Assembly: GCA_021776555.1 (NCBI GenBank)
Contig: JAJFFR010000261.1
Span: 1 to 54,327 of the forward strand
Direction: 5' to 3'
Origin: Robiginitomaculum sp.
Lineage (GTDB): Bacteria; Pseudomonadota; Alphaproteobacteria; Caulobacterales; Maricaulaceae
DNA: 54,327 nucleotides
Shown in pieces: positions 19,165 through 35,097 of this stretch; the first letter of the stretch is position 1, and each line of letters begins with the position of its first letter. The notes beneath the pieces were generated by a model. That model saw nothing but the letters and a program-made list of their open reading frames with translations, did no database searches and had not been told where the DNA came from. A program made the position numbers and the translations under genes.

Positions 19165-19291
19165 AATTGCCTCCCATCTGTGTCGACCCTCACAACAAGA
19201 TTATTTGCGCCATTATCCTTTTTCTATTAGCATTCCTGCGTATATTCACCGAGATTTTGGATGTACGTATTCCGGTTGGAAACTGAAATTC

Positions 19292-19918
19292 ATGATTGAT
19301 TTCAAAGAAATGCGAATTTTAATAGCCGAAGATCATGCGTTGGTTCGCCAAGGTATGGCAGCGCTGATTGCCACCGAAGTGCGAGAAGTAGTTGAGGCAA
19401 AGGATGGTGAGGAAGCGCTGGATTTTCTCAAGAAGGAGAAATTTGATCTGGCCTTGATTGACATTGGCTTGCCGCTTCGTACCGGTATGGATGTATTGTG
19501 TGAGGTTCGCCGTCGGGAAATTCCGGTAAAAATCATTGTTCTTACTGGTGATACCGATCGCTATTCTCCTGCTACCGTTTATGCTGCCGGGGCTGACGGG
19601 TTTCTGTACAAGACAGCTGACGCAGATCATTTTATGGCGATCTTTAGCGCTGTGGCAAAAGGTAGCCGTTTACCCACAACTGATGATGAGGATGGTCACA
19701 ATGCTGGTGCGGTGGCCAATTTGCGCGATGGTTTGACTGCAAGAGAATTGCAAATCGTCAAGCTGGTCGCCGAAGGTCAAAGCAATAAGCAAGCGGCTTC
19801 GACGTTGTGTATCAGTGAACATACGGTGCGAAAGCACCGCGAGCATATCAATCGGAAATTGGAGATTTCGTCACCAACTGCGTTGTCGACCTTTGCCATC
19901 AAGGCGGGTCTTGTTTGA
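19292..19918 (+). CDS. NarL/FixJ (LuxR-type HTH) response regulator
   Basis: The ORF track starts at 18977, but that extension is antisense to the previous gene. Start taken at ATG 19292 (or 19310, MRILIAEDH). Receiver motifs IAED, DLALIDIGLP and FLYKTA. C-terminal LTARELQIVKLVAEGQSNKQAASTLCISEHTVRKHREHI. Confidence 0.9.
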   Translation: MIDFKEMRILIAEDHALVRQGMAALIATEVREVVEAKDGEEALDFLKKEKFDLALIDIGLPLRTGMDVLCEVRRREIPVKIIVLTGDTDRYSPATVYAAGADGFLYKTADADHFMAIFSAVAKGSRLPTTDDEDGHNAGAVANLRDGLTARELQIVKLVAEGQSNKQAASTLCISEHTVRKHREHINRKLEISSPTALSTFAIKAGLV

Positions 19919-19943
19919 TTGGCCAGTGCGCTCAGGCACGCAC

Positions 19944-21863
19944 TTATTGATTTCGATAGGATTGTAAAATCGCAGCGAGTTGATTGGGTTGGACTGGTTT
20001 GGCCAGCACCATAAACCCAGCTGATCTTATTTTAGTTAGGATAGACGGTTCAGTTGCTCCGGTTACGATCAGGGCTGGTAGCTCCTGTTTTGTCAGAGTG
20101 CGTAGTTTTCTGATGACTTGAAGTCCATCCGTGCCAATCAAATGATAATCGACAATTAACAATTGAGGGTCAAAGCCACGTGCCAAGTGGTTTTGGGTTT
20201 GCTCCAAACCAGATGCCACCCGGCATTCGCATTGCCAACTTTCCAGTAGTGTGCCCATCGCATCCAGAATGTCTGGTTCATCATCAATTGCCAAAACTCG
20301 CATGCCAGCCATGTCTAAGCTATCTGACTCTAGGACAGGCAGAGGCGTTATATCTGATTTTTGATCCGGGTTATCCGGCAGCTCTAGTAAAAAGGCACTG
20401 CCTTTTTTCGAGGTTGCGGAAATTCGAATGGAGCCGCCCAAGGCCCGTGTGAATTCATTGACCACATACAGGCCCAAGCCATAACCGCCTTGCGCTTCCG
20501 GTTCTTCATTTCGTAAGGAAACATAAGATTCAAATATCCGGTTGGCATCTTCAGAGGCAATGCCCGGCCCATCGTCAGAAATGTGAATTTCCCACCCGGT
20601 TGGTGTGCGGCTTGCTTTGATCTCAATATGTGATCTGGCTGCTTTTAAGGCATTATCCAACAAATTGCTCAATACTCGTTGCAACATCCCATGATCGCTA
20701 ATCAAATTACCTGCCTCGCAGGAAAACTTGAATTTAACATTTTGTTTTTCGGCCTGAATTTCAAAACTATTGGCAAGTTGTGAAATCAAAGGGCGCATTT
20801 CGGTTTCGGAAAATACAGGTTCAAGATTTTTGGCCTCAACCCGGGCGGTGTCGAGTGTATCTTGTAACAGGCTGCTTAGGCTGGTGATTGAATTGCCTTG
20901 CTTTTCAACTAATCCCGCAATTGCGTTGTCCTCTACTTTACGTTTTAGGGCCGAGTTGAACATGGCTAGAGCGTGCAAGGGTTGGCGCAAATCATGACTG
21001 GCAGCTGCGATAAATCTGGCTCCCTCCAGCGCGCTATTTTCAGCGCGGGCGGCGGCAGCCTTAAATGACCGCGTACGGTTATGTACCTGCTTTTCCAGCT
21101 CTAAGTTCAAACTTTCTAATTCGCGAGAGGTGCGCCGGGCGTGGTGAAATGATCGCTGTAAGCGCAACAAGAGCGCGTAAGAATAACCGACCCCCAGCAC
21201 CAGAACCCCAAACGGAGTTAAATCAAAACCGTTGCCATTGTCGGTATAGATAACTGCATCATTGATCGCGGTCAGGAAGAATATGAAATTGGAAATTAGA
21301 ATAGCCCCGGCACCGGGCTGCTTGTCCCGCATCGCGCGGAAGGTAAATATCAACGTAAATAAAATCACGCTGACATTCAGCGCAATCGAGAAATCACGGG
21401 TGTGCGTATAAATGCTCTCAGGCGTGATCAGCACAAAAATAGACATTGCCAATCCAAAATGAATAATCCAGCGGGAAATTTGTTTTGGGAAATGGTCGGG
21501 AAAAGCTGAGCAGAAAAACAACAAATAGACGCTCGGCGCGGCAAACAGCGACAGGTACACCAGTTTCAAATTGGCCCAATAGGCAGATTCAGGAAAATAG
21601 ATGTGAAAATACGGAATAACGCCGGATATCCGCACCACCAGAATAAAACACAACAAGCTAAACCACAGATGCACCGGCCCATTTTCCCGGTCATCTCGAT
21701 CGGCCAGATAAAAAATCAGATGAAACAGACCAATAGAAAATAGAACTCCGAGTACTAGGACATAATAAAATGTCATGGTGCCCAGCCTTTTTTGGAGCAA
21801 CACCTGATCCCAAATAACGATCGGATGACCCGGCCCACCATAGGCATGAGAAGCATTGGCCAA
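19944..21863 (-). CDS. Hybrid sensor histidine kinase/response regulator, 7TMR-DISM 7-TM module (C-terminal part of an interrupted gene)
   Basis: 639-aa ORF with about 7 TM helices. H-box AAASHDLRQPLHAL, N-box LLDNALKAA, G-boxes DDGPGI and GYGLGL, and a C-terminal receiver (LLIVDYHL, LAKPV). The upstream frame is open back to the TAG at 21891-21893. Confidence 0.85.
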   Translation of the reverse strand: MANASHAYGGPGHPIVIWDQVLLQKRLGTMTFYYVLVLGVLFSIGLFHLIFYLADRDDRENGPVHLWFSLLCFILVVRISGVIPYFHIYFPESAYWANLKLVYLSLFAAPSVYLLFFCSAFPDHFPKQISRWIIHFGLAMSIFVLITPESIYTHTRDFSIALNVSVILFTLIFTFRAMRDKQPGAGAILISNFIFFLTAINDAVIYTDNGNGFDLTPFGVLVLGVGYSYALLLRLQRSFHHARRTSRELESLNLELEKQVHNRTRSFKAAAARAENSALEGARFIAAASHDLRQPLHALAMFNSALKRKVEDNAIAGLVEKQGNSITSLSSLLQDTLDTARVEAKNLEPVFSETEMRPLISQLANSFEIQAEKQNVKFKFSCEAGNLISDHGMLQRVLSNLLDNALKAARSHIEIKASRTPTGWEIHISDDGPGIASEDANRIFESYVSLRNEEPEAQGGYGLGLYVVNEFTRALGGSIRISATSKKGSAFLLELPDNPDQKSDITPLPVLESDSLDMAGMRVLAIDDEPDILDAMGTLLESWQCECRVASGLEQTQNHLARGFDPQLLIVDYHLIGTDGLQVIRKLRTLTKQELPALIVTGATEPSILTKIRSAGFMVLAKPVQPNQLAAILQSYRNQ

Positions 21864-21890
21864 TTGCAGGACAAGGACACTTTCCCCATC

Positions 21891-22373
21891 CTAAGCCGGG
21901 AAAATTCGGGAGGTGTAATTTGGATTGATTTCGTTCAGGTTGTTGGAAACCACGCCATTGCCGCCAACCAAAACATCATCCACATAGAGCCGCCAGGCCG
22001 CATTGGGTGAGACCATATGAAACGATAGATCACGATTGTAGGAGGGAAGTTCCAGCCGCGCCCGATAGGTGGCTACTCCATATGGGCCTTTGAAACCAGA
22101 TGATTGAGCTGTCGTCCATCGGCCCGGCATGGTCACCAAATCGCCCTGATAGTGGGCATCAAATTCCGTTGGACCAATTAGTTTGCCCCAAACGACTTCC
22201 CACTCTCCGGATAAGTTCAGGGGCTGGCCCGACATGAACTTCCAGTCCGGCGCTGATAATTTGCCTTGCTCCACAGCAATAGGTTCAGCTTGGCCGTTTG
22301 CCGGGTAAACCCAAAGCAAGCCGATCAGCCATAAAAGCCACAAAGGGAAAGTTGAAATGTAGTTTCTGCTCAT
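21891..22373 (-). CDS. 7TMR-DISMED2-like periplasmic sensor domain with signal peptide (N-terminal part of the same interrupted kinase gene)
   Basis: 160-aa ORF. Signal/TM LWLLWLIGLLWVYPANG. SGEWEVVWGKLIGPTEF, PGRW...GVATYRARLELP and WRLYVDDVLVGGNG match the DISMED2 pattern. It ends at a TAG that is in frame with the kinase ORF 27 nt downstream. Confidence 0.7.
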   Translation of the reverse strand: MSRNYISTFPLWLLWLIGLLWVYPANGQAEPIAVEQGKLSAPDWKFMSGQPLNLSGEWEVVWGKLIGPTEFDAHYQGDLVTMPGRWTTAQSSGFKGPYGVATYRARLELPSYNRDLSFHMVSPNAAWRLYVDDVLVGGNGVVSNNLNEINPNYTSRIFPA

Positions 22374-22508
22374 AAAACCGGTTCACAAAAAAAGGAATGA
22401 TCAACATAGACCAAATCTGGGCCGAACGTCAGACTTACCCACTTCACCTGAAACTGCATATACGCAGATGTGCTAATGGGAAGCTCTTTTTAGGGTGTGT
22501 ATGGTCTT

Positions 22509-23039
22509 ATGAAATTGCCCATTCAATGGGTGTCTTGGCTTTGGGATTCATATGATCGAGCGGGTAAAATAGTGAAAGACATTCGAACGCAGCAGACTGT
22601 TGGGCGAATTATCGATCATATCGAAGTGCTTGATTGCTTTGAAAAGACCTTGTCGCGTTACAAGGAACTAAATTGGGACCATCTGTTGCCTTGCTTGGCA
22701 CAGCAGCCTCGCATGGTAATCGCCAAGGCGTTGGCCGAACACGGCCAGCAGTTTATTTTGGATACCGGAGAAATTCCAAATCTGTGGGAATTGATACAGG
22801 CAATGCCGGTTTCCACCAAAAAATACCACTTGTTTGCCTTGATGGCAAACCGAAATCAGGGCGAGGAAATGAAGATGTACCGCTTCATTTTTATCCGCGA
22901 ACCCCAAGTCAATACAACAGATCCAAAATGGTTGCTGCACTCGGCACTGCGCTTATCTGAGACTGAATTTAACTCTGGCCTACAAGCCTGTTTGAGGTGG
23001 ATGCCTGAAACCTATGATCGTCGCAAATCAGTTGATTGA
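22509..23039 (+). CDS. Hypothetical protein (paralogous to the C-terminal half of the next ORF)
   Basis: The ORF track starts at GTG 22497; the first ATG is at 22509 (MKLPIQW). No signal peptide and no family recognised. See findings for the alignment to 23064..24035. Confidence 0.6.
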   Translation: MKLPIQWVSWLWDSYDRAGKIVKDIRTQQTVGRIIDHIEVLDCFEKTLSRYKELNWDHLLPCLAQQPRMVIAKALAEHGQQFILDTGEIPNLWELIQAMPVSTKKYHLFALMANRNQGEEMKMYRFIFIREPQVNTTDPKWLLHSALRLSETEFNSGLQACLRWMPETYDRRKSVD

Positions 23040-23063
23040 TCCGCACAAAAAGAAAGAACTGAT

Positions 23064-24035
23064 ATGACCTATTTGCTCTCCAGATATGTCGGCGCGCCCT
23101 TACTGGCGGCAGTTCTATTCATGCTGGTGGCTTGTGATGCAGCACCTACAAAAATGAGTGAAGCTAAGGCCAAAGCTTTGGCCCAAGCAGAGATTTTAGA
23201 AAATGCGCGTTTTGGATTTTTGGGTTCCATGCGCGCATGGCATATGGCCAGATCAGATGGGCTGGGCAGCCTCTTGTACACACTTCGAGTTGAAGGGCCG
23301 ATGAATATAAAATTCGATGATATGTACAGAAATGGCGTTACACGTGTTCCTGAAAATTGGACCCTTGAATGTCTGAAATGTGCAAGCCCGGTGCAGTGCG
23401 AAGCGGATGTTACCGTAAAGTTCGACATAGATGCTGCACCGTCCTTGCGCCGCTATGAATTACAAAAAGCTGGGTTTTTTGGTCTGTACCAAGAGCATAT
23501 TCTAGAGGACAGCTCAGCGCTCCGTCAGACATGGGCCGCTTGCAAAATTGACAATGAGCAGGCCCACACACTGGTTGAAATTGCCATGGAACGGTTTTTT
23601 CCAAGTGTTGATTCCGGGCATCTTGCCAAGACCGTTACCCGAATTTTTAACCGGGAGTTCAAAGCCTATCGAGATGAAGATTGGGAGCACCTGCCTAATC
23701 TTTTGGCCGAGTTTCCGCGCCGCGCATATTTGGTGCAACGGGAAGTGCCTAACAGCCCAGAACGATTGGTACAAAGTGGTGAGCTGCCGGTTAAGTGGAA
23801 GCTGGGCTGCGCTGCGTTGCGGGTGAACGGAACGTATGGTTTTTATGCGCGCTTTACCCAAAGACAATCTCCAAAAACATGGAAACCTTTTCACATTGTA
23901 TTTGTGGCAACCCATTTAAGACCGCCGCCAGATAATTGGGACATGGGTAGCATCTTGCATCTGACCGAAGATCAATACCAACAGGAATTGGCGACCTGTC
24001 AGCAAAAAACCAAAGATCGACCCAGGAAATCCTGA
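23064..24035 (+). CDS. Hypothetical lipoprotein
   Basis: 323-aa ORF. Lipobox-like FMLVAC. The C-terminal ~130 aa align by eye with the preceding 180-aa ORF. Confidence 0.65.
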   Translation: MTYLLSRYVGAPLLAAVLFMLVACDAAPTKMSEAKAKALAQAEILENARFGFLGSMRAWHMARSDGLGSLLYTLRVEGPMNIKFDDMYRNGVTRVPENWTLECLKCASPVQCEADVTVKFDIDAAPSLRRYELQKAGFFGLYQEHILEDSSALRQTWAACKIDNEQAHTLVEIAMERFFPSVDSGHLAKTVTRIFNREFKAYRDEDWEHLPNLLAEFPRRAYLVQREVPNSPERLVQSGELPVKWKLGCAALRVNGTYGFYARFTQRQSPKTWKPFHIVFVATHLRPPPDNWDMGSILHLTEDQYQQELATCQQKTKDRPRKS

Positions 24036-24102
24036 ATTTATCATCATAGCCTTGTGACTTTGCGCGCAACCCGGCTAGATTGGCCGCTGGAGGGGTTTGT
24101 AA

Positions 24103-26379
24103 ATGGGTTTGTTCAAGACACTTGGGTTAAGTTTGATTGCGGTTCTGGTCGGGGCTGGAATGTATCTGTTCGGAATGAAGCAAAACTGGTTCGGGGAACA
24201 TCGTTTGCCGGGGACAATCGAAGGCCCAGCGATACCGGATCATATTGTCAAGCAACGGGCTGCAACTCAACGCTCTAGTGCCAATGCGCTAGGAAGTCAG
24301 GCACCCAAGCAAATCCTGTTTGGTGATTTGCACGTACATACAACCTATTCCACCGATGCCTTTATGTGGTCCTTGCCGGTGTTTGGCGGAGAAGGCTCAC
24401 ACCCATTGGCCGATGCTTGCGATTTTGCACGCTATTGCTCCGCCATTGATTTTTGGTCGATCAATGATCACGCCGAGGCTTCCACGCCAGACCGGTGGGC
24501 TGAAACCAAAGAGAGCATCCGGCAATGCAATGCCGTAGCAGGTGATCCGGCCAATCCGGATATGGTCGCGTTCATGGGCTTTGAATGGTCGCAAGTTGGC
24601 CGGACGCCGCTAGAACATTTCGGCCATAAAAATGTGATCTTCAAAGGCTTAAGCGATGATGAGCTGAGCCTTCGCCCGATTGCGGCTGCTGGTGTGGCCA
24701 GCGCAACCATTCGCGGGTCAGCAACTGATCTCGACTGGCGACTGGCGCTGACTGATTTTTCCAACCGTCAGAATTATTTCGATTTTCGGACCTTTGCTGC
24801 CGAAATTCGTTCGGTACCGGATTGTGACCCGACCATCGCGTCCCCTGAACTTTCGCTGAATTGTTATGAGCAGGCAGCTGACCCCGGTGATCTGACTTTG
24901 CGATTGGACGCACAGAGTCTGGAGTATTTGTTGATCCCGCACGGGACCAGTTGGGGTTTTTATACGCCGCCCAGCACGTCATTCGACAAACAACTTGCAC
25001 CCAATATGAGACCTGAAAAACAGCCTTTGATTGAGATCATGTCTGGCCACGGCAATTCGGAAGAATATCGCTCATGGCGCAGCATTGATGTGGTGGATGA
25101 AAAAAACCTGATTGCATTCTGTCCGAAGCCTTCAAAGAATTATCTGCCGGGGTGTTGGCAGGCTGGTCAGATCATATTGGAACGATGCACGGATGCCGGT
25201 GAGAGCGCAGCTGAATGTAAGGCTCGTGCTGAAACAGCACGCGAACGGTATGCTGCGCTGGGTGTAGCGGGGCATACCATTATTGCCGGGGCGCAAATCG
25301 ATGACTGGCTGGATGCCGGTCAGTGCAAGGACTGTTTTTTACCGCCTTTGAACCACCGTCCCGGTGTTTCTGTGCAATACGGATTAGCCATTAGCAATTT
25401 TGAAAAAGATGCGGACAACCCAACACGCTTTGATTGGGGTTTTGTGGCAGCGTCTGATAATCACCGGGCGCGTCCGGGTACCGGCTATAAGGCTCATTCC
25501 CGGTTTATGATGACGGAGGCATCGGGGCCAACCACTGAGAAATTGCGAAGCACCATGTTTCCTCCTGTCGAGAAAAAGGCGGAATCTCTGAATATCACCA
25601 GACAAAATATCTGGGACAATCCGGGGTTTCATTTGTTGGAGCTGGAACGCCAAGCCTCATTTTTCACCACCGGTGGTCTGACCGCTGTACATGCTGAAGG
25701 GCGTTCGCGTGGGGCGGTATGGGGTGCCATGAAACGTCGTGAAACTTATGCCACGTCCGGGCCACGTATGTTGCTTTGGTTTGATTTACTTGGCACAGAA
25801 GGTGACGTGCATCCAATGGGCAGCAAGGTAGAACAAGGCGCTGTTCCGCGTTTTCGGGTTCGTGCGGCTGGTGCGTTCAAACAAAAACCCGGTTGCCCGG
25901 AATTTGCTGAGCAAGGCTTGCCTGGCGAACGATTGGACAAATTATGTCGGGGTGAATGTTACAATCCATCTGATGAACGTCAGAAAATCGTTCGGATTGA
26001 GGTGGTTAAAATCACGCCGCAAGTGTTTGCGAATGAACTGGTCGATAATCTGATTCATGATACGTGGAAAAGCTTTCCCTGCGATGATCAGGGGCAGGGC
26101 TGCACGATTGAGTTTGAAGATCCAGAATATCTGAGTGATAGTCGCGATGCCCTCTACTATGTACGGGCCATCCAAGAGGCAACGCCGACCGTAAATGGTG
26201 CCAATTTACGCTGCATTTTTGATGCGGAGGGCAAATGTATCTCGGTAAATCCATGTTATGGCGATTATCGGACCCCCAAGAGTGACAATTGTCTAGCTGA
26301 TGTTGAAAACCGAGCGTGGTCATCGCCGATCAATTTGCAATATGCCGCCAGTACCGCCGAAGTTGAAACCGCCAACTAA
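24103..26379 (+). CDS. Membrane-anchored DUF3604-like protein (PHP-like metal site)
   Basis: 758-aa ORF. GGAGGGG SD upstream. N-terminal TM (LGLSLIAVLVGAGMYLF). ILFGDLHVHTTYSTDAF and WSINDHAE are typical of DUF3604/PHP-type metal-binding N-termini. Many paired Cys. Confidence 0.65.
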   Translation: MGLFKTLGLSLIAVLVGAGMYLFGMKQNWFGEHRLPGTIEGPAIPDHIVKQRAATQRSSANALGSQAPKQILFGDLHVHTTYSTDAFMWSLPVFGGEGSHPLADACDFARYCSAIDFWSINDHAEASTPDRWAETKESIRQCNAVAGDPANPDMVAFMGFEWSQVGRTPLEHFGHKNVIFKGLSDDELSLRPIAAAGVASATIRGSATDLDWRLALTDFSNRQNYFDFRTFAAEIRSVPDCDPTIASPELSLNCYEQAADPGDLTLRLDAQSLEYLLIPHGTSWGFYTPPSTSFDKQLAPNMRPEKQPLIEIMSGHGNSEEYRSWRSIDVVDEKNLIAFCPKPSKNYLPGCWQAGQIILERCTDAGESAAECKARAETARERYAALGVAGHTIIAGAQIDDWLDAGQCKDCFLPPLNHRPGVSVQYGLAISNFEKDADNPTRFDWGFVAASDNHRARPGTGYKAHSRFMMTEASGPTTEKLRSTMFPPVEKKAESLNITRQNIWDNPGFHLLELERQASFFTTGGLTAVHAEGRSRGAVWGAMKRRETYATSGPRMLLWFDLLGTEGDVHPMGSKVEQGAVPRFRVRAAGAFKQKPGCPEFAEQGLPGERLDKLCRGECYNPSDERQKIVRIEVVKITPQVFANELVDNLIHDTWKSFPCDDQGQGCTIEFEDPEYLSDSRDALYYVRAIQEATPTVNGANLRCIFDAEGKCISVNPCYGDYRTPKSDNCLADVENRAWSSPINLQYAASTAEVETAN

Positions 26380-26382
26380 CGG

Positions 26383-27261
26383 TTGGCAGTGCAGGTGAGC
26401 GAAGATCAAAATTGGCGGCATCGTGTTTTTGCAATGGGCGCGGTTATTGGGCTGGGGCTGGCTGCATTTGCCGCATTGGGTTCGGGCAAAATAGCTAGAG
26501 AAACATTGGCACCGGGTGCCATTGCCAGCGTGAATGGCAATATGATTTTGCGAGCAGATTTTGCTCGTGCGTTAACAGCCGTTTCGGTGGGGCGAACCAA
26601 CCCATTATTGCCTGCTGATGAAGCGGGTATTCTAGCCCGACTAATCGAAGAAGAATTGCTGGTGCAACGTGCATTGGATCGTGGATTTGCCCAAGCGGAC
26701 TCGCAATTGCGAAATGCGTTGGTCAACGCGGTTACCGCTGACGTAATTGCCCGCAGCCAGTCCCGACCAGTTTCTGAGCAAGATTTACAAAGTTACTACC
26801 AGAAAAATGTGGGGCGTTTTACCGTTCCGGCCCGCTATTCAATCCGAGTTTTGTTTTTTACTGGACAAGGTGGTGGTGAGCGTATGGCGGAATTTGATCA
26901 GACTTTAGCCGATGGTGAGAACCCGTCTGAACTGGTGCGGATATTTGGTGGCAAGACACTGGGTGTGCCAAGGGGTTTGCTTTCCGCCCGCAAAATCATC
27001 GATTATATTGGCCCTGTTCCAGCCACAGGACTGGACGATTTACACATTGGACAATGGTCGAGGGCCATACCTGATCGCCGGGGCGTGTGGCGGGTCTATC
27101 TGGAGGATCGCATTGAAGCCAAAATTCCGCCGCTACCAGAAATAGCGGAGCAAGTGCGGGTGGCTTTTACGAATGAGCGCGATGATGCCGCTTTGCGTCA
27201 CTTTTTGAATGCCATGAAAAAAGACGCGGACATCAACTATTCCAATGAAATCAACCCATGA
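26383..27261 (+). CDS. Membrane-anchored parvulin (PpiC)-like peptidyl-prolyl isomerase/chaperone-like protein
   Basis: 292-aa ORF; start uncertain (TTG 26383, GTG 26389 or ATG 26434). TM anchor, a SurA-N-like segment IASVNGNMILRADFARAL, and a degenerate rotamase-like region (FTVPARYSIRVLFF ... GQWSRAIPDRRGVWRVYLEDR). Confidence 0.5.
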   Translation: MAVQVSEDQNWRHRVFAMGAVIGLGLAAFAALGSGKIARETLAPGAIASVNGNMILRADFARALTAVSVGRTNPLLPADEAGILARLIEEELLVQRALDRGFAQADSQLRNALVNAVTADVIARSQSRPVSEQDLQSYYQKNVGRFTVPARYSIRVLFFTGQGGGERMAEFDQTLADGENPSELVRIFGGKTLGVPRGLLSARKIIDYIGPVPATGLDDLHIGQWSRAIPDRRGVWRVYLEDRIEAKIPPLPEIAEQVRVAFTNERDDAALRHFLNAMKKDADINYSNEINP

Positions 27262-28505
27262 GGAATTGCCGCTGGCAATTGGGGGCGTGGCACGCAATCT
27301 GGGTGGTCTTTTGTGTCAGTTGTCTGGCCGGTAGTGCATTGGCTCACTCTTCTAGTCGGTCCTTTTCCGAATGGCGCGAAGAGGGTCAAAATATACAGAT
27401 GATTTTCAGCATAGAGCGGGTGCAAGCCACCCTGCTGATCCCATTGCAAGACCAGAATTTGCCATTGGCCAGTGTACTGAGCGGCCATTTGGCGGCGAGC
27501 ATCCATGTGTCCCGGCTGGGGGATGTCAGTTTGTGCCAACCCTCCTTGCCACAACAAATGCCGTCCAGCCCTGAAACCTTGCGTATTCGAATGGTATTTA
27601 ATTGCGGCTCTGGCGATCAAGCGGCGGGTTGGTCGATTGAAAACAACGCATTTTTTGATTTGGCTTCGACCCATATTCATATCGCGCAATTGCAGAGCCA
27701 AGATCAACAGACAGAGCAGGTCTTTACCAACGCTCGGCGCTCACACGTATTGCGTGGAGTGGCGGGTGAACATGCGGATGTAAGTCTATGGGCCAATATA
27801 GTGCAATATATCCAATTGGGATTCATTCATATTTTAAGCGGGTGGGATCATCTGGCCTTTGTGGTCGGATTGATCATCTTGGCCGGGTCGCTTCGAAAAA
27901 CAGTATTTCTGGTTACTGGGTTTACCGTAGGTCATAGCCTGACGCTTGGTCTGGTTGCGCTGGGCTGGGTGCAGCCGGTAACTCCGGCGATTGAAGCGCT
28001 GATCGGGTTTTCGATCGCCTTTGTGGCTATGGAGTTCTTGTTATCTGGCGGTAGTTGGTGGCGTTCGGTGACTAAATGGCTGGCTGCTTTGTTCGCAGGA
28101 TTTGCGATCCTCGCGCTATTTGGATTTGGACAATTACCCAGCCTAGTTTGGGTTGGCTTGGGATTATTTGTGTACAGCACTGGGCAGTTAGAGGCCAAGT
28201 CGCGGCCTGGCCTATCGGGAGCGCTCATCCTGACCACTATTTTTGGGCTGGTGCATGGGGCTGGCTTTGCCACACCTCTGATGGAGGCGGGACTACCTAT
28301 TGGACGTCAAATCCCGGCATTAGCAGGGTTTAATATCGGTGTGGAAGTGGGACAATTGCTGGTCGTGGTGATCTGGCTGCTGGTGTTTGGCTTGATCACA
28401 AAATTGGCAGGTCAGCAACGAACCACGCAAACACAAATTGCCATGAGCGGGTTGATCTTGGTTTTAGGGATGTTCTGGTTTTCTGGTCGAGCCTTGATCG
28501 GCTAA
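27258..28505 (+). CDS. HupE/UreJ family membrane protein with an extra ~190-aa N-terminal periplasmic domain
   Basis: 415-aa ORF. ATGA overlap with the previous gene. Signal peptide. HILSGWDHLAFVVGL (HupE_UreJ_2 signature) followed by about 6 TM helices. Confidence 0.75.
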   Translation: MRNCRWQLGAWHAIWVVFCVSCLAGSALAHSSSRSFSEWREEGQNIQMIFSIERVQATLLIPLQDQNLPLASVLSGHLAASIHVSRLGDVSLCQPSLPQQMPSSPETLRIRMVFNCGSGDQAAGWSIENNAFFDLASTHIHIAQLQSQDQQTEQVFTNARRSHVLRGVAGEHADVSLWANIVQYIQLGFIHILSGWDHLAFVVGLIILAGSLRKTVFLVTGFTVGHSLTLGLVALGWVQPVTPAIEALIGFSIAFVAMEFLLSGGSWWRSVTKWLAALFAGFAILALFGFGQLPSLVWVGLGLFVYSTGQLEAKSRPGLSGALILTTIFGLVHGAGFATPLMEAGLPIGRQIPALAGFNIGVEVGQLLVVVIWLLVFGLITKLAGQQRTTQTQIAMSGLILVLGMFWFSGRALIG

Positions 28506-28615
28506 AGAACTCTACTTTGCTCAAATGGACAATTTGGCAATTTCTGTTAGGGTAAATGTAGGGTTTCAGAGAAAACCATGCAATTCGGGACGCAAAAAAC
28601 GATTGGGTTGACTGT

Positions 28616-31600
28616 TTGGTGGTAGAAACACATCAGGCTAACAGGTTACCGGTGTCATGGGTTTGTGCATTGGCACTTTTGTTGTGTGTGCTACCCCTAT
28701 CCATGGCGATGGCTCAGTCTGCAATTGACGCTGATGTCCAAAAAATAGCCAATGCGCGAGCAGAAATTGCTGTTGCTACAGAGGCGGTCGGTAGCCGACA
28801 AGCAAGTGTCAATGAGGCCAAGGCAACCATGTCGGTCGCACAACGTGCAGTGGCGCGAGCCGAAGGAAACTTGGATTTTCAGCGACGACGTGCCGGTAGT
28901 ATTGTTTCCGCTACCGATTATCTGGCCGAAACCAATGACACGATTTCGGACTTGCGCCGCCAATTGAACGCTTTGGAAAACACACCGGAAAATGCCAGTC
29001 AGATTGATGTGTTGGAGCGTCAGATCAGAGCGATCAATCGCCAACTTTCCAGACAGGCCACAGAGTATGCCAGTCGGAATGTACAGTCTTCGCGGGAATT
29101 TGCCGCAGCAGAAGAAGCGCTAAAGCTTGCCAAGCAAAAAGCCCGTTCGGCTGAGGATCAATACAACCTGGATGATTCGGCGCTGGATGGCGCCAAGCTA
29201 CAATTGGCGAAGCTCAATAAAAGCTTGGCTGATTTACTGGAAAAAACGTCTGGCAATATGGCCAAGCTGGCACCGGGCTTTGTCCGTGAAATTACCATCA
29301 CCCAAAATGGCAAAACCATGTATCAGGCCCGATGGGATGAAGACGATACTTTGGGTAAAAAGATCAAACTGGCCATCAAGGAACTGGAACGGGAAATCAA
29401 AGAGGTCAATCGGGTTCGCGTCTTGGTGAACGCGGACATGGAGGTGTATCGACGGGATATCAATGCTGCCACGCAACAAGTTAAACTACTGAACGAGGAA
29501 CGAGGTTGGAATCAATCGGTCATATTGTGGTCGGAACGCCTCTATTATTTCGGTGAAGTTGTCGCATTGGCGGCCACTGGCGCCGGTATTGTCAGCGGGG
29601 TTCGGGCGGCGACATTGGCCGCAGTTGAAGGTGGCACTGCGGTTACGGCCCGTTTTGTGGCGCGCGAAACGGTGCGCCAAACGGCGCTGCAACTTAGCTT
29701 TGGGTCGTTGCCCAGCGTTCTGGAATGGCCGGGCTTTGCTTTGCGCGGCAAAGCTTGGTTGCAGGCATCATCCAGTGTCCTGACAGCTGAAAAAATGTTG
29801 CTTGCATCAAAGGCTTGGGTTGAACCTGTTGCGCTGATCGGAACAGTCTATCAAAATTATAGTACCGTCAAAGGTCTGGCCTCCTCACCCTCGACCCGCA
29901 TTGCTGGGCGAAGAATGGGTTCCATCCAGCGAGAGCTGGAGGTGGAGGTGGAGCGCATCCGCCTGTTCAAAAACCAGAGGTTGGATTTTATCGGTGCGCG
30001 CGAAGCGCGGCGATCTTATGCTCTGTCATCAGCTGAAATTATCCAAAAAGCCTATAACGCGCAGTATTCAAAAATACGCAATAAAGATAAAAGTTTCTGG
30101 CGAACCATAAAAGTAGGTAAGATATTTACCTCGGATGCCGAGATCGCAGTCGCCTATGCGACCTTGGAAATTTTACGCTCTGAGGCGCAACTAAAAGCCG
30201 CCAAAGTCTATCTCGGCTTGACGATTGATGAACGCAACAAGCTGGATGCGACGCTGCCGGATTTACAATCCAGATTGCAAAATATGCGCGAAAAACTCCC
30301 CGGCGCACCGGTGCGGGTCAAAAAGGTTTTACGGAATCGCTATGTAAAAATTGGGGACGAGCTAAGCGCAAGTATCTCCATCGAATTTACGCAAGCCTTG
30401 AAAGAAAACCCGCTGGTGAAGATCGGCACAGGTACGATTTCCCGCCCCCCCGCCGGGGCAGATGATTCCGAAGGGCTGCCATTACCCGGACCGGACAAAG
30501 GCGCCGTGCTGGTTCAAATGAGCGGGGCTGGCAAAAGCTGGTCTGGCACATTTTATACTGCGCCGCTTTCGGATATTGCCAGCAGCAATGACCCGATACA
30601 GATCGAGATCAACGCCAAGGACTTGAACGACCGCGCACTAGATGCCGATCCGCAAACAGCCACCTTTGCCGAAGCCGGTGGTTGGGGTTTTTATGAGGCC
30701 ACGCCAGAGGGCGCGTCCCATGGCAATGGTGGCCCGGACAAATGGCACCATATCAATGGTATTTTTATGAAGGGCAGCAGCTACGTCTTTGTCATCGACG
30801 CGTCTGGCTCAATGGGTGACAACACTCGAATGGTGCAAGTAAAACGTAGCGCCCGGACGTTTTTATCAGCCATGGAAAAGGACGATGAAGTGGCGATTTG
30901 GGCGTTTTATGATTGCGGCAATATATCGTTGGCGCAAAGCTTTACCCGGGACAAGAAAAAGGCACTGGCGGTCATTAACGGAATTGAACCCAGTTCTGGT
31001 ACACCATTGGCTGCAGCCATTGGTATGGCCGGTGAGTATTTGTTGACCAAGGCCCATTTTGGTCCCAAAAGCCTGATTATCTTGTCAGATGGAGCGGAAA
31101 GCTGTGATGGCGATCCAGCTTCGGCCGCTGCTTTGTTCCGCCGGCAAGTTCGGGTGTTGGGAAATTTGGGGCAAAGCAATCCAGATGGCTCCCAACCGCC
31201 TCGTATGGGACAGCCCGTTGCAGGTGGTGCAGGTCCGGCCAATGACAATCAGCCAGCCAACGCAAATCCGTCGCCGGGTTCTAATGCGAATGAGAATCCA
31301 GACGAAGCAGAGCCAGAAGATGGCAAAGTGGTGAAAGTAAAGTTGGCTGATATTGACGCGTGGAATTTGGTCGAAACAGGCGGCACTTCTTCACCGATAT
31401 TTGCATTGCAGCGCACCCGCTATCACGAGACGGGCAAGGATGGCGCATGCACCGCAGAGGTCACCCGCGAGACCTATTATGCCAACTATACGTCAAGCGA
31501 AAACCCCGACAAATCGATCCGGGTGATTTGGCGGGTGAACCGTTCCGCGTCCAAGCGCCAATCATTGGCTGTCACTCGTTGTGCCTCTGGTCAAAAATCC

Positions 31601-31705
31601 ATGAACGCGTTTCGCAAAAAATGGAAATCAATCAAGGGTGTGACCGAACAACAAGTGGGCGCACAATTGGAGGCTCGGGTCCAAACCTTGGCTCGAGGGG
31701 GGTAG
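28616..31705 (+). CDS. Large exported coiled-coil protein with a C-terminal von Willebrand factor A (vWA) domain
   Basis: 1029-aa ORF (TTG start; exact start uncertain). Signal peptide ...LSMAMAQSA. About 270 aa of Ala/Gln/Arg/Glu-rich coiled coil, a hydrophobic Ala/Gly-rich segment, and a second helical region. Complete MIDAS: FVIDASGSMGD, SGTPLAAAI, ILSDGAES (about nt 30780-31200). Then a Pro/Asn/Gly linker and a ~130-aa C-terminal domain. Confidence 0.8.
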   Translation: MVVETHQANRLPVSWVCALALLLCVLPLSMAMAQSAIDADVQKIANARAEIAVATEAVGSRQASVNEAKATMSVAQRAVARAEGNLDFQRRRAGSIVSATDYLAETNDTISDLRRQLNALENTPENASQIDVLERQIRAINRQLSRQATEYASRNVQSSREFAAAEEALKLAKQKARSAEDQYNLDDSALDGAKLQLAKLNKSLADLLEKTSGNMAKLAPGFVREITITQNGKTMYQARWDEDDTLGKKIKLAIKELEREIKEVNRVRVLVNADMEVYRRDINAATQQVKLLNEERGWNQSVILWSERLYYFGEVVALAATGAGIVSGVRAATLAAVEGGTAVTARFVARETVRQTALQLSFGSLPSVLEWPGFALRGKAWLQASSSVLTAEKMLLASKAWVEPVALIGTVYQNYSTVKGLASSPSTRIAGRRMGSIQRELEVEVERIRLFKNQRLDFIGAREARRSYALSSAEIIQKAYNAQYSKIRNKDKSFWRTIKVGKIFTSDAEIAVAYATLEILRSEAQLKAAKVYLGLTIDERNKLDATLPDLQSRLQNMREKLPGAPVRVKKVLRNRYVKIGDELSASISIEFTQALKENPLVKIGTGTISRPPAGADDSEGLPLPGPDKGAVLVQMSGAGKSWSGTFYTAPLSDIASSNDPIQIEINAKDLNDRALDADPQTATFAEAGGWGFYEATPEGASHGNGGPDKWHHINGIFMKGSSYVFVIDASGSMGDNTRMVQVKRSARTFLSAMEKDDEVAIWAFYDCGNISLAQSFTRDKKKALAVINGIEPSSGTPLAAAIGMAGEYLLTKAHFGPKSLIILSDGAESCDGDPASAAALFRRQVRVLGNLGQSNPDGSQPPRMGQPVAGGAGPANDNQPANANPSPGSNANENPDEAEPEDGKVVKVKLADIDAWNLVETGGTSSPIFALQRTRYHETGKDGACTAEVTRETYYANYTSSENPDKSIRVIWRVNRSASKRQSLAVTRCASGQKSMNAFRKKWKSIKGVTEQQVGAQLEARVQTLARGG

Positions 31706-31711
31706 GTTAAA

Positions 31712-33436
31712 ATGCACAGACCGACCTTGAAATTTTTGACACCTATATTGCTGGCTTTGGCCGCTTTTGGAGTTGGAATGCCGGTATTGGCTCAAGATAC
31801 ACTAGCGCCAACAGAAGCTGTCTCTGAAGCGCCAACCAACACTGATCTGGATGCCATTTTGAGCGAAATGGAAGCCATGGATTCGGTCGGTGAAGAACTG
31901 CCTGAATTAGAAGCAGATGACCAAAAGCAATTCGCCCAATCTGCCGCGTTGTACTGGGATTTTGAGGTTGATCTGGCTGACGACACGGATGTGGACTGGG
32001 TGCATTTTTCACTGATGCGCCCCGGCATGTTGTCATTGATCCAGAAAAATGCGCGCGCCAGCCAATTGGTTTTTGCTTTGCAGGGTGAAGCTGAAAACGA
32101 AGTAAAATTACCGGAGCCGTATTGGCGTGGAGATGATCTGATCTACACATTTGCCGCTTTGCCGATTGATTATTACTTGCGAATTTCTGGCGCGGCTTCA
32201 GATACAGCCTACGTGTTGTTGTTGGATTTATTGACCGAAACCGATGATTCCGAACCCAATGATACAGCGGAAATGGCTGTTCCAGCTTATGGCACTTATT
32301 TCGTAAACCGTCACAACGCAGCCGATGAGGACTGGTTTACCTTTGATCTGAAAGAACGATCCCGCCTGACGATTACCATCGGGCCAGAAGGAGCGGAACG
32401 AGGGGCATTTACGGCGGTCCTGACTGATCCAGCAACCGAAGCGCAGCAAAGCATGGACTTTTATGGTTCAGAATTACCACAAGGCGGAAGCCAGCAATTG
32501 GCTTTGATCGAGCTAGAAGGGGGCACGAAGTTATTACAAGTAAGCCCTCCAAATGTGGGGCAAAGCAATTCCCGGGTCCATTTTGAGGTTCGCCCGGTCA
32601 CCGACCCGTATGAACCGAATGACCAGTTGCAGGATGCCAAGCCATGGGCAATCGGTGAGATTTTAGCCGGGGTGCAACTGATCCAAGGCGATGACGACTG
32701 GTTCTATATTGATATCGAGCGCGCCGGGGAGTTGGAAATCGTGATTGGTGGTGATCTAGCTCCGTGGTTTGAAATAACCCGTGCGGATGAGGAGCCCGCG
32801 CTACTGGATTTTCGTTTCAAGGAAGGGCAGGGCGATCTAGCCACTGGTAATTACATAACTCGTTATTATGGTGACGTAACACCGGGTCGTTATTTGGTAA
32901 AGATATCCGCATCCCAGTATCGCCTCAGTGAAATCCAATTGGCTTTGTCCTTTGTGGAGGACAACTCATCGGACTCGGATACAAATTTCTTCATGATCGC
33001 GCTCGACACGGACGAGGGCATTTTGAACCAGCTAGAAGACGTGGCTAAAAGAGGTGGCGGAGAGGTTCTGGCTGTGGAGGCAGATGATCTGAAATTGGCA
33101 CTTTCACTGGGTGCTGTGGTGGCCAAAACCCGCAATCGCAGTTTTGGCGCCGGGCAATTTGCCCAAACCACTTTGAAATTGATGGCTGAAAAGAGCTTTC
33201 GAATATCGGATATCGTATTTACGCCCGATCTTGCTTCCAAGCAGGTCAGCACACTCATCACCACTGCCCTACAGGCGCCAAGCAGTTCTCGTGATGAGTT
33301 TAACGCCAAATTCCTAGTCACACAAATGACCATAACCAAGGATCGTAGTCTGAGCAGTTCTGATGACCCGGCTGATCATGATCGCTTGCGTGGACTGTTA
33401 CGCAATACAATTTTGTCCCCGTTTGAACCTAAATGA
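31712..33436 (+). CDS. Secreted protein with three pre-peptidase C-terminal (PPC)-like repeats and no protease domain
   Basis: 574-aa ORF, 6 nt after the vWA gene. Signal peptide ...GMPVLAQ. Repeated signatures DDSEPNDTAEMA/DEDWFTFDL and DPYEPNDQLQDA/DDDWFYIDI, plus a degenerate first copy (DVDWVHFSL). Confidence 0.7.
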   Translation: MHRPTLKFLTPILLALAAFGVGMPVLAQDTLAPTEAVSEAPTNTDLDAILSEMEAMDSVGEELPELEADDQKQFAQSAALYWDFEVDLADDTDVDWVHFSLMRPGMLSLIQKNARASQLVFALQGEAENEVKLPEPYWRGDDLIYTFAALPIDYYLRISGAASDTAYVLLLDLLTETDDSEPNDTAEMAVPAYGTYFVNRHNAADEDWFTFDLKERSRLTITIGPEGAERGAFTAVLTDPATEAQQSMDFYGSELPQGGSQQLALIELEGGTKLLQVSPPNVGQSNSRVHFEVRPVTDPYEPNDQLQDAKPWAIGEILAGVQLIQGDDDWFYIDIERAGELEIVIGGDLAPWFEITRADEEPALLDFRFKEGQGDLATGNYITRYYGDVTPGRYLVKISASQYRLSEIQLALSFVEDNSSDSDTNFFMIALDTDEGILNQLEDVAKRGGGEVLAVEADDLKLALSLGAVVAKTRNRSFGAGQFAQTTLKLMAEKSFRISDIVFTPDLASKQVSTLITTALQAPSSSRDEFNAKFLVTQMTITKDRSLSSSDDPADHDRLRGLLRNTILSPFEPK

Positions 33437-33461
33437 ACGATTTTTTAAGGAGGAACTCAAA

Positions 33462-33860
33462 ATGACCAAGAAAAAACCATCCATCAAAATAGAGGGCACC
33501 AATCGCATTATTCTGGCGGCTGATGCGCTTTATCTAACGGCTTTGATGCTGATCTCGACCCAGATGAAAATCGGCACATTGGACTATGTACTGCTGGTTC
33601 TGGTCATTCTGTCCTTGGCTATGCTGGGGGCGGTCACTTTCAAGACCTTTGGACCATCAATCGTCCGTCTGATCAATCTGATGCAAGTTGTATTGGCTGC
33701 CGTAATTTCGCTCAGGTTTCTGATTATGTTTTTCAGCGATCGTAGCTCAATTGCCAGCCTGTTGCTCTATGGCGCGGTGATCATGTTCTTTTATGTGGCG
33801 GTCAATGGAGTTTGGCGCTTGGTCCGAGACTTTACGCCGCCAGCCAAAAAGGAAGAATAG
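33462..33860 (+). CDS. Small integral membrane protein (about 4 TM)
   Basis: Start set at ATG 33462 behind a strong AAGGAGG SD (the ORF track extends to 33363). 132 aa with a basic N-terminus (MTKKKPSIK) and four hydrophobic segments. Confidence 0.7.
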   Translation: MTKKKPSIKIEGTNRIILAADALYLTALMLISTQMKIGTLDYVLLVLVILSLAMLGAVTFKTFGPSIVRLINLMQVVLAAVISLRFLIMFFSDRSSIASLLLYGAVIMFFYVAVNGVWRLVRDFTPPAKKEE

Positions 33861-33903
33861 CCCAGCCCATCATAGTGGTTGGTTGCTTTGTAGGAGAGAT
33901 GCC

Positions 33904-35097
33904 ATGCGGATGACTAAGGGTGCCCTGTTGGGTTTTTCGGTTTTTGCCTTGGGCTTGTTTGCTGGCTCGGGCAGCTGGAGTGAGGCTCGGGCAGAAACCG
34001 AAGCCAATTGTCCGCTTTGTGCGCATGTCGCCAAGCCTGAATTGCCGCCTTTACAAGGCGAAGCTGGTCCGACCGTCTATCTGAAATTGCAAAGGCATGC
34101 CGAAAAGGTTGAGCAATCGTTCACCAACAAGGCATTGCTGGCGACCCAATGGCGGTTCGAGTCCACTTGTGGGCGTGCTCCGGCCAGTGATCTGATCGAC
34201 GCCATCAGCGGGTATATGGCGCAATACGAAGTTTTGGCTGGAGCGGTGCAAACCTGCACAGATAGCTGCACGATCAGCCAAAACCCGGCAGAGTATTGTG
34301 CTAGCGGACAGGCGCTGAAACAACAAAATGAAGGGTTGGAAGGCTTGGGGATTGCCTTTTCAGATACCGCCATCTTCCTTGATGTAGCTACGCAGGATCA
34401 CCATTCCACGTCCGATGCTCTGAGCGCTTTGCTGGATGGCGCAGCCGCAGAGGCACAGGACGTATTGCAAGCTGATCTGGATCATCTGATTGCCACGACC
34501 TTGCCACCAGAACGTGACCCGCGCGTGGCAACGGCTACGACAGAGTTCGTTCAAACGGCCAATGTTTTGTACTCGTTAGCTTGGGCGGATTTGGCCGATG
34601 GAAAAGCCTCTGAATTGGCGGAACATCTGATGGGACTGTCAGATGATCTTCAATCTCTAGATGATGCGGTGTATATGGCACTGTCGCGGGCCAAAATCAT
34701 GCAGCCGCTTGAACAAAAGCAGCTTGGCAAGCAATTGATTGAACTTTCAGCGCAAATTGAATATGCGCGGCGCTCAGTTCATACTTCCAGTGCAGAAACC
34801 GGCTCAAGCGGGCCAAACACCAATGCCACTGCGATTGATCCAGCAACAGAGAACGTTGCCGCTAGGCAATCTGTGGCGAGTTGTTTTCGCAAACTGTCAC
34901 TGGATACAGCTATTGCAGCCGAGTTTTCTCGAATAGCCCGCAATGAACTGAATCAATGCCGTTCATTCGCTACGTGTCGAGCTGGTACTTCTTCGAAGGC
35001 AGAAACTGCTCCTGGCATCTTGACGGAGCGACTGGTGACCAATCGCGATAAGGCGGACAAGCTTAGCCTTGCCACTCAAAAGGCGATTTGCCGGTAA
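33904..35097 (+). CDS. Secreted Cys-containing, alpha-helical hypothetical protein
   Basis: Start set at ATG 33904 (MRMTKGALLGFSVFALGLFAGSGSWSEARA signal peptide; the ORF track extends to 33793). 397 aa, CPLC near the mature N-terminus, more Cys pairs elsewhere. No family recognised. Confidence 0.65.
   Translation: MRMTKGALLGFSVFALGLFAGSGSWSEARAETEANCPLCAHVAKPELPPLQGEAGPTVYLKLQRHAEKVEQSFTNKALLATQWRFESTCGRAPASDLIDAISGYMAQYEVLAGAVQTCTDSCTISQNPAEYCASGQALKQQNEGLEGLGIAFSDTAIFLDVATQDHHSTSDALSALLDGAAAEAQDVLQADLDHLIATTLPPERDPRVATATTEFVQTANVLYSLAWADLADGKASELAEHLMGLSDDLQSLDDAVYMALSRAKIMQPLEQKQLGKQLIELSAQIEYARRSVHTSSAETGSSGPNTNATAIDPATENVAARQSVASCFRKLSLDTAIAAEFSRIARNELNQCRSFATCRAGTSSKAETAPGILTERLVTNRDKADKLSLATQKAICR

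Follow-up and report, generated by a model that had tools for sequence, protein, structure and literature searches.

A vWA domain that appears to be divided between two adjacent genes for exported proteins in Robiginitomaculum and other marine bacteria

The DNA analyzed here is a 54,327-nt stretch of Robiginitomaculum sp. (contig JAJFFR010000261.1 of assembly GCA_021776555.1; the whole stretch is called the window below), and it carries a forward-strand gene cluster in which a von Willebrand factor A (vWA) domain appears to be shared between two separately exported proteins. Reading the genes from a listing of open reading frames (ORFs) and by direct inspection of their junctions, we place gene 1 at 28616-31705 (1029 aa from a TTG start), gene 2 at 31712-33436 (574 aa), gene 3 at 33462-33860 (132 aa) and gene 4 at 33904-35097 (397 aa). 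The spacers between them are 6, 25 and 43 nt, which bears out a preliminary description of this DNA as holding four tightly packed, co-directional genes, and purine-rich Shine-Dalgarno-like sequences lie ahead of genes 2, 3 and 4. That description had also given each gene a signal peptide or transmembrane (TM) segments. Indeed, the N-termini of genes 1 (if it starts at TTG or GTG), 2 and 4 are signal-like and gene 3 encodes four hydrophobic segments, in support of an exported and membrane-associated cluster.

The vWA domain of gene 1 combines an entire metal site with an incomplete fold. Its fragment, residues 715-852 (30758-31171, forward strand), spans strand A through helix 4, perhaps with a strand-E-like VRVLGNLG as well, and contains DASGSM, GTPL and LSDG motifs. 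The metal-ion-dependent adhesion site (MIDAS) is complete, with DASGS at residues 728-732 (D728-x-S730-x-S732), T796 and D825, and is conserved in the family alignment; Cys767 and Cys830 are also conserved. Pfam VWA_2 (PF13519) matches gene 1 with an E-value of 7e-15 (55.9 bits against a cutoff of 27), and Pfam VWA (PF00092) matches with 7e-9 over profile positions 3-130 of 174, whereas unsplit relatives cover positions 2-173. Therefore, where the preliminary description had recognized a complete MIDAS vWA domain, the completeness holds for the metal site and not for the fold. In fact, an hhalign comparison of the gene 1 family with unsplit relatives is highly significant (E 4e-38), but it covers residues 12-158 of the unsplit protein P0046 and ends at strand E. 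Similarly, in Foldseek searches the gene 1 vWA fragment matches the vWA domains of BatB, CMG2 and Mfa5 over only ~135 columns, the targets being 177-206 residues long. In the family alignment the domain extends from the DASGSM strand to LTDGEESCxGDPxAAAxFR and is followed by a variable Pro-rich linker. Short-form gene 1 homologues terminate 23-30 residues past TDG, and a large set of other relatives terminates exactly 14 residues past it, the stop coming directly after ...ETCGGDPVSAARQ.

The segment that gene 1 lacks has a counterpart in gene 2. Unsplit relatives such as P0046 and P0056 consist of a signal peptide, a vWA domain and a C-terminal TM segment, and after the equivalent helix they continue with ...IDVIHVIGYDV..EEQLKNIASAGGGKYYSAEDAGQLNQAL; this is matched by the gene 2 stretch TNFFMIALDTDEGILNQLEDVAKRGGGEVLAVEADDLKLALSLGAVV, which is the best-conserved part of gene 2 among homologues at 24-41% identity. 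The gene 2 segment, here called the tail (residues 423-472; 32978-33127, forward strand), consists of strand FFMIAL, helix ILNQLEDVAKRGGG, strand EVLAV and helix DDLKLALSLGAVV. When eight gene 2 tails were aligned by hhalign with 15 unsplit proteins, the probability was 94.9% (E 4.3e-8) and the tail fell on P0046 residues 146-195, the segment after TDG. A hidden Markov model (HMM) of the tail likewise matched about ten unsplit vWA proteins, every time just after TDG (E down to 4e-7), and gave zero matches to gene 1-type proteins; it also recovered the tails at loci L017, L018 and L020, outside its training set, with E-values of 3e-10 to 6e-5 among 11,696 ORF segments. A PDB sequence search with the tail profile gave noise only. 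Among the 150 best representatives of 50%-identity clusters, 78 end no more than 45 residues past TDG, 31 continue without a recognizable tail, 17 have the tail in cis, and the remaining 24 were left unclassified. The C-terminal part of gene 2 had earlier been likened to the tail of a degenerate vWA fold. A vWA tail is indeed what hhalign, the tail HMM and the fusions described below point to, but a stretch that is the best conserved of its protein and supplies what gene 1 lacks is not degenerate.

Joining the two pieces in silico restores much of the profile match. We fused the vWA N-fragment of a gene 1-type protein to the tail of its neighbor and scanned the product with the independent Pfam VWA model, using shuffled and reversed tails as controls on the window pair. 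For that pair the score rose from 40.9 to 47.2 bits (+6.3) and the match lengthened from positions 3-130 to 3-163 of 174, whereas the shuffled (39.5 bits) and reversed (40.8 bits) tails did not extend it. Fusion lengthened the match and raised the score in 7/7 gene pairs, the six further ones all gaining coverage and 7.6-18.3 bits: P0047/L017 went from 42.2 to 59.5 bits, P0009/L009 from 52.7 to 69.1, P0014/L013 from 45.3 to 58.7, P0017/L014 from 45.0 to 55.4, P0021/L016 from 28.9 to 36.5, and P0030/L099 from no match to 18.3 bits. Gene 1 by itself, with the MIDAS motifs in place, does not hold the complete six-stranded fold in one polypeptide, and position 163 of 174 is reached only with the gene 2 tail.

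AlphaFold predicts beta-alpha-beta-alpha secondary structure for the tail in both runs that included it. Gene 2 alone, modeled from three sequences (overall predicted local distance difference test score, pLDDT, 46.5), shows three beta domains followed by this pattern at residues 427-467. The other run joined residues 702-1029 of gene 1 to residues 296-574 of gene 2 in a single chain, built on 26 unpaired alignment rows; here the vWA N-fragment had pLDDT values above 90, the C-terminal domain of gene 1 values of 82-96, and the last of three PPC repeats that precede the tail in gene 2 values of 66-91.

A second architecture carries the tail at the opposite end of the PPC-repeat protein. P0047 ends 14 residues past TDG, and the next gene (L017, L018) encodes a signal peptide, VQIEFFIIGFDVSESTSEQLQQVAEASGGEYIDARDGSELEAAF at once and then six PPC repeats, which in the L017-type partner match Pfam PPC at E 6.7e-24. 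L020 has an L017-like layout with a 330-aa gene 1 that bears an HExxH-like N-terminal domain. The tail thus follows the PPC repeats in the window type and stands at the mature N-terminus, ahead of them, in the L017/L020 type. L099 and L100 encode gene 1-type proteins with other N-terminal regions and an overlapping signal-peptide/PPC gene downstream, which in L099 ends in a tail-like segment and a TM helix.

These pairs were collected in searches of very different reach. Word-indexed protein searches with genes 1, 2 and 4 reached no further than a sister genome, Robiginitomaculum sp. NORP17 (GCA_002733805.1), and one fragment from a vent metagenome. The sister proteins are 88, 75, 93 and 73% identical for genes 1-4, and the sister locus is fully syntenic from DUF3604 to past YjdM; the fragment is a 1.9-kb hydrothermal-vent contig on which a gene 1 homologue ends 5 nt upstream of a gene 2 homologue (41% identity). 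The wider family was found only by an exhaustive HMMER search with gene 1, which gave 993 relatives at E <1e-3, twelve of them at <1e-30. Gene 1 homologues of 35-36% identity occur in L007 (GCA_021774575.1) and in L009-L011 (Ponticaulis / Hyphomonadaceae TMED5). At these loci an overlapping gene 2 homologue (31 and 24% identity) comes next and a gene 3 homologue (32 and 29%) after it; the overlaps are 4 nt in L007 and 1 nt in L009, in frames that differ from the window, gene 4 is absent and the flanking genes are wholly different. L014 holds genes 1-3 together, with a shorter gene 1, and L013 and L016 (Leptobacterium meishanense I13, a cultured flavobacterium) hold genes 1 and 2 only, their gene 2 ending in a TM helix and a basic tail. 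A genome-collection scan with the gene 2 alignment found Robiginitomaculum NORP17 only; a first metagenome scan gave no matches, and a second gave mostly generic vWA proteins, apart from L019 and L020. The source databases label the proteins merely 'VWA domain-containing' or 'hypothetical'.

In all 13 independent loci a truncated-vWA gene is followed, with an overlap or within ~110 nt, by a gene for a signal peptide and PPC repeats. The tail is recognized in 11/11 loci with a long enough contig, the two remaining contigs ending before it, and the genes flanking the module differ at every locus. Beyond Robiginitomaculum the module is found as a trio or a pair, at 24-41% identity, in Hyphomonadaceae, in a Flavobacteriaceae isolate and in marine and vent metagenomes. 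The neighborhood comparison therefore does not sustain the four-gene conserved unit first proposed: gene 1 always stands next to gene 2, gene 3 accompanies them at some loci, and gene 4 occurs in the sister genome only. The conserved unit is gene 1 plus gene 2, with gene 3 added where gene 2 lacks an anchor of its own. Because distant relatives (24-41% identity) keep no more than genes 1-3 or 1-2, in unrelated contexts, gene 4 and an upstream trio of exported or membrane proteins (DUF3604, a peptidyl-prolyl isomerase (PPIase) and HupE) are genus-restricted neighbors outside the module.

Gene 3 and a TM anchor on gene 2 are complementary in their presence across loci. In the window, L001, L007, L009 and L014, a gene 2 without a TM helix is accompanied by gene 3; in L013, L016 and L099, gene 2 ends in a TM helix and a basic tail, and gene 3 is missing. 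The gene 3 homologues of L007, L009 and L014 (29-32% identity; phmmer 2e-15 to 4e-12) always lie directly after gene 2. In the window, gene 2 residues 473-574 (33128-33436 with the stop, forward strand), which AlphaFold renders as low-confidence helices and which are conserved in A2, occupy the place of the TM anchor seen in the homologues without gene 3. Since gene 3 occurs where gene 2 has no TM anchor, we infer that it may serve as a membrane anchor or partner of gene 2.

Gene 4 encodes an Ala-rich exported protein whose ten cysteines, two of them in an N-terminal CPLC pair, are all conserved in the sister genome. Its sole homologue is P0007 of Robiginitomaculum sp. NORP17 (73% identity), with none outside the genus among 5.8 billion clustered proteins and none in the other fetched loci. 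Searches of Pfam, NCBIfam, PADLOC and PHROG gave no match, and a PDB search gave noise only. A heme-binding site was considered for gene 4 and rejected, the motif being CPLCAH rather than CxxCH.

The start of gene 1 bears on whether its product is exported. Candidate starts are TTG 28616, GTG 28619 and GTG 28652; automatic callers chose ATG 28703, which yields 1000 aa and loses the signal peptide. An in-frame stop at 28559-28561 bounds the ORF and makes TTG 28616 the earliest possible start, and the NCBI call for gene 1 of the sister genome is 49 codons longer still. The peptide upstream of the called ATG (...NRLPVSWVCALALLLCVLPLSMAMAQ) is kept at the protein level in the sister genome, with conservative changes, and distant homologues begin signal-like; we therefore prefer the long form, in which residues 1-34 (28616-28717, forward strand) would be the signal-peptide region, with hydrophobic 19-mers at residues 8-39. 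A lipoprotein signal was rejected, LLLC not being a lipobox.

In the N-terminal half of gene 1 (28718-30295, forward strand), long helical, coiled-coil-like stretches poor in Pro and Gly occur together with the motif APGFVREITITQNGKTMYQARW and a hydrophobic, Ala/Gly-rich region at residues ~300-440. The motif, APPxLxExxVxQxGxxxYxARW, is conserved in the alignment with P0008-P0014, and the half gives only weak SMC/JetC-type matches, typical of coiled coils. An early estimate of ~700 aa of coiled coil was too high: a composition scan alone places helix-favoring stretches at residues ~40-295 and 440-560, and residues ~575-706 are a beta domain. In the Ala/Gly-rich hydrophobic core reported earlier, no 19-residue window is hydrophobic enough to be TM-like, and a TM segment there was rejected as below threshold. 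The beta-rich domain (30338-30733, forward strand), with conserved motifs LDADPxT and GGxDxWH, precedes the vWA fragment; it is conserved in all long and short forms and is repeated in P0020 and P0030. Beyond the vWA fragment lie the Pro/Asn/Gly linker and unassigned C-terminal domain of the preliminary description, both as reported. The linker, a low-complexity stretch at residues 853-902 (31172-31321, forward strand), varies in length and composition among homologues and has pLDDT values of 30-48. The C-terminal domain (residues 903-1029; 31322-31705 with the stop, forward strand) is modeled as a five-strand sheet with two helices and has conserved Cys945 and Cys989. It is kept in long-form homologues and in the L002 fragment, is absent from short forms, and has no sequence match in Pfam or, noise apart, in PDB, where a search with gene 1 likewise found nothing. 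As a separate observation, the truncated-vWA proteins P0018, P0020 and L020:603-1595 have HExxH-containing N-terminal regions (HEYFHITQYEY, AHEFFHLIQYEY, LHELGHVHQE), which suggests that metallopeptidase-like heads may be attached to the split vWA in these cases.

Gene 2 begins with a signal peptide (residues 1-27, ...PVLA/QD; 31712-31792, forward strand) that is hydrophobic at residues 5-28 and is followed by an AQD conserved in homologues. Three PPC-like beta-sandwich repeats follow at residues ~80-175, 181-295 and 301-415 (31949-32956, forward strand), two with EPND and D-x-D-W and one without EPND. The window's own Pfam PPC match (PF04151) is below threshold, at 18.2 bits against a cutoff of 25.9; the homologues of L013 (30.0 bits) and L017 (85.0) pass it and that of L009 scores 24.5. 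The modeled third repeat superposes on the collagen-binding domains of ColH and ColG (Foldseek E 1e-5 to 6e-4, TM-score 0.69-0.76, target-normalized) and so shows their beta-sandwich fold. The three PPC-like repeats of the preliminary description are borne out, and, as it stated, no protease or other catalytic domain is attached to them; in gene 2 Pfam gives the sub-threshold PPC only. The EPND...D-x-D-W signature and the fold are shared with the PPC/collagen-binding domains of the ColG/ColH collagenases (PF04151; PDB 3jqw, 1nqd), but in gene 2 the repeats are fused to a vWA fragment and a membrane anchor instead of a protease. At the mature N-terminus of gene 2 there is also an acidic motif, EADDQxxFAxxAAL (31919-31960, residues 67-80), in which E67, D70, F74 and A75 are invariant in five homologues; that it might be a ligand of the MIDAS site is pure speculation.

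The immediate neighbors of the four genes are DUF3604, a SurA-like PPIase and HupE/UreJ_2 upstream and YjdM downstream. The upstream genes (24103-28505; the DUF3604 protein has 758 aa) are separated by 3 nt at one junction, overlap by 4 nt at the other and are kept in the sister genome, the HupE/UreJ_2 protein bearing an extra N-terminal region of ~180 aa; they are a separate, probably metal-related exported/membrane trio. Further upstream, window positions ~16960-24040 are missing from the sister Robiginitomaculum genome, where MAPEG/TetR directly adjoin DUF3604, apparently because of an insertion in one genome or a deletion in the other. Genes in this region encode a LuxR-type response regulator, a 7TMR-DISM hybrid histidine kinase and, at 22.5-24 kb, several exported proteins without assignment. 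The kinase (19944-21863, reverse strand) lies 28 nt downstream of a separate 160-aa signal-peptide ORF (21891-22373, reverse strand), which could be a detached extracellular sensor domain of the kinase or its frameshifted N-terminus. A suggestion that the four genes act together with the exported cluster at 22.5-28.5 kb is not upheld, given that even the sister lacks the genes at 22.5-24 kb and none of the distant loci contains DUF3604-PPIase-HupE. Promoter and terminator scans came out at or below shuffle expectation.

None of the usual partners of bacterial vWA proteins accompanies the module. As had been noted, the window contains no MoxR, Bat, Tad, TerY/PP2C/kinase or chelatase partner. 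MoxR and Bat genes do not adjoin the module in L007, L013, L014 or L016 either, and L009 has an unrelated AAA_5/VWA_CoxE pair 3.5 kb away, beside molybdenum-cofactor (Moco) dehydrogenase genes. The PADLOC TerY model reaches E 0.0028 (15 bits over 50 residues) with no phosphatase or kinase neighbor, and the chelatase-subunit model TIGR02442 (ChlD/BchD/CobT) scores 43.9 bits against a cutoff of 779, on the vWA stretch only. Tad, pilus and sortase genes are absent from the window and from a consistent position at related loci, with one N_methyl gene 7 kb off in L013. For anti-phage and phage families there was no significant PADLOC match and no PHROG match. Nothing in the NCBIfam, PADLOC, PHROGs, Rfam and PDB sequence searches assigns the genes to a known system. 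Genes 2-4 are not covered by any curated family, and Pfam gives nothing for genes 3 and 4.

Among the closest known systems are the BatA/BatB proteins of the Bacteroides aerotolerance operon (PDB 3ibs, 4jdu), which are likewise membrane-attached bacterial vWA proteins with a MIDAS and are among the best structural matches of the modeled gene 1 fragment (Foldseek E 3e-5 to 8e-5). Indeed, the unsplit gene 1 relatives resemble Bat in consisting of a signal peptide, a vWA domain and a TM anchor. In Bat, however, the whole vWA lies in one chain, of which the Foldseek match covers ~135 of ~205 residues; Bat operons include a MoxR AAA+ ATPase, DUF58 and TPR proteins, none of which is found here, and Bat proteins have neither a PPC partner nor a coiled-coil region. 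We also observed that the unsplit relatives P0046, P0079, P0129 and P0145 have a Cys-Cys motif at their end, after which come a hydrophobic stretch and basic residues (as in GFCCAPAFIIPLLLGGGYLAVGRLER); this arrangement resembles a C-terminal sorting or anchoring signal more than a plain TM helix. The MIDAS adhesins (integrin I domains, Myxococcus CglB/CglD, Bdellovibrio Bd0875, the Mfa5 pilus tip, PilY1) share with gene 1 an exported vWA and an intact DxSxS...T...D site, and 6tnj, grouped with them, is a Foldseek match of the gene 1 fragment. They differ in having a contiguous vWA and in their ties to a pilus, a gliding machine or the targeting of outer-membrane lipoproteins, of which there is no sign here.

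Taken together, we consider it moderately probable that genes 1-3 constitute a conserved envelope module centered on a vWA/MIDAS domain whose two pieces come from different genes and are assembled in trans after export through Sec. The gene 1 and gene 2 proteins would be exported unfolded, and in the periplasm the gene 2 tail would complete the gene 1 vWA by fold complementation, so that a stable heterodimer would form only after export. Gene 2 would then hold the complex at the cytoplasmic membrane, through gene 3 or through its own TM helix, with the PPC repeats acting as a stalk or as binding modules. The intact, conserved MIDAS site in an exported vWA suggests metal-dependent capture, and the assembled site may accordingly bind an acidic ligand. 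Donor-strand complementation in chaperone-usher pili and split inteins are natural cases in which a fold or a protein is completed by another polypeptide. By analogy with these, an incomplete exported fold would be completed by a segment of another polypeptide, coupling the two after secretion; the donated piece would differ in being ~45 residues of beta-alpha-beta-alpha from a Rossmann-like fold instead of a single Ig strand, and no chaperone or usher is present.

Several points temper the case for such an assembly. In the AlphaFold fusion, with its unpaired alignment and for the window pair only, the tail had pLDDT values of 39-58 and was not confidently placed, which speaks neither for nor against docking. 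The hhalign comparison indicates that gene 1 may retain the strand-E-like VRVLGNLG, which overlaps the contribution of gene 2, so that the break point of the window type can be placed only approximately. The L099 tail was missed by the tail HMM and seen by eye and in the fusion test only, some of the truncated representatives could be gene fragments, and gene 3 has almost no periplasmic loops, which leaves its hold on gene 2 hard to picture. Finally, no conserved neighbors point to a role, and because no conserved genomic context constrains it, a physiological role as an envelope tether or adhesion-type complex is a guess of low confidence.

The first of these points also speaks for an alternative in which the two pieces are relics of an old gene fission and no longer cooperate, the gene 1 vWA folding and binding metal alone and the gene 2 segment being a small spacer that separates the PPC repeats from the membrane anchor. 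The N-fragment is predicted at pLDDT >90 without a confidently placed tail, the confidently folded C-terminal domain of long-form gene 1 could cover the exposed vWA face, and Giardia Rpn10 is reported to have a reduced vWA domain (PMC4352536). Against this reading, the tail is the most conserved stretch of gene 2 at 24-41% identity and still matches a generic Pfam vWA model. Similarly, short-form and L017-type gene 1 proteins lack the C-terminal domain and yet keep a tail-bearing neighbor, and in the second family the tail has moved to the opposite end of the PPC protein and still lies beside a truncated vWA. This relocation is hard to explain without selection for pairing, and we regard the relic explanation as unlikely.

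More improbable is the original proposal of a four-gene operon with a complete MIDAS vWA that forms one complex and possibly acts with the exported cluster at 22.5-28.5 kb. It accounts for the co-directional genes with short spacers and for the synteny of all four genes and DUF3604-PPIase-HupE in the sister genome, but that synteny is limited to close relatives (73-93% identity) and gives way at 24-41% identity to genes 1-3 or 1-2 alone, in unrelated contexts; gene 4 has no other homologue in the fetched loci or the protein collection, the genes at 22.5-24 kb are absent even from the sister, and the gene 1 vWA fold is incomplete. A split that is not biological could reflect a pseudogene, a mistake in sequencing or assembly, or one protein translated through the stop codon. 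In the window, genes 1 and 2 do share a reading frame across their 6-nt spacer, with only TAG GTT AAA between them (31703-31714), so that read-through of UAG would fuse them. The shared frame looks incidental, because junction frames differ elsewhere (the 4-nt overlap of L007, the 1-nt overlap of L009). Moreover, gene 2 has its own ribosome-binding site and signal peptide, three PPC repeats separate the vWA pieces, the arrangement is found again in 13 independent assemblies from different projects, and dozens of 50%-identity clusters stop at one position. We therefore give an artifactual split hardly any credence.

vWA/MIDAS domains are much-studied adhesion and assembly modules, known from integrins, complement, pili, Bat proteins and MoxR partners. 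In the relatives compared here (Bat, MIDAS adhesins) and in the literature that we found, the vWA is contiguous, and a full-text search, with most subscription journals outside its coverage, found no precedent for a split, truncated or trans-completed bacterial vWA. What appears to be new is the split architecture of known domains and the rule by which they pair. Going further, and only tentatively, we propose that the FYDCG...ETCGGDP clade of bacterial vWA proteins may be naturally split across at least ~100 50%-identity clusters, the two-thirds with the MIDAS lying on a secreted 'head' with varied N-terminal domains (coiled coils, HExxH-like, beta repeats) and the last third on a neighboring PPC-repeat 'stalk'. 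Such a split could serve as a general docking device that assembles by itself and links heads to membrane-anchored stalks only after export, with the metal site formed only in the assembled state.

If true, a vWA whose fold is spread over two separately secreted proteins would represent a novel construction of this domain, and if assembly is confirmed it would be a natural case of post-export fold complementation beyond pilus donor-strand exchange. The split would explain why many database 'VWA domain-containing' proteins end abruptly after TDG, and it offers an annotation rule, namely to pair truncated vWA proteins with PPC-repeat partners; the two pieces might also furnish a small orthogonal split-domain pair for protein engineering. 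The module itself occurs in marine Alphaproteobacteria and Bacteroidota, including the cultured Leptobacterium isolate.

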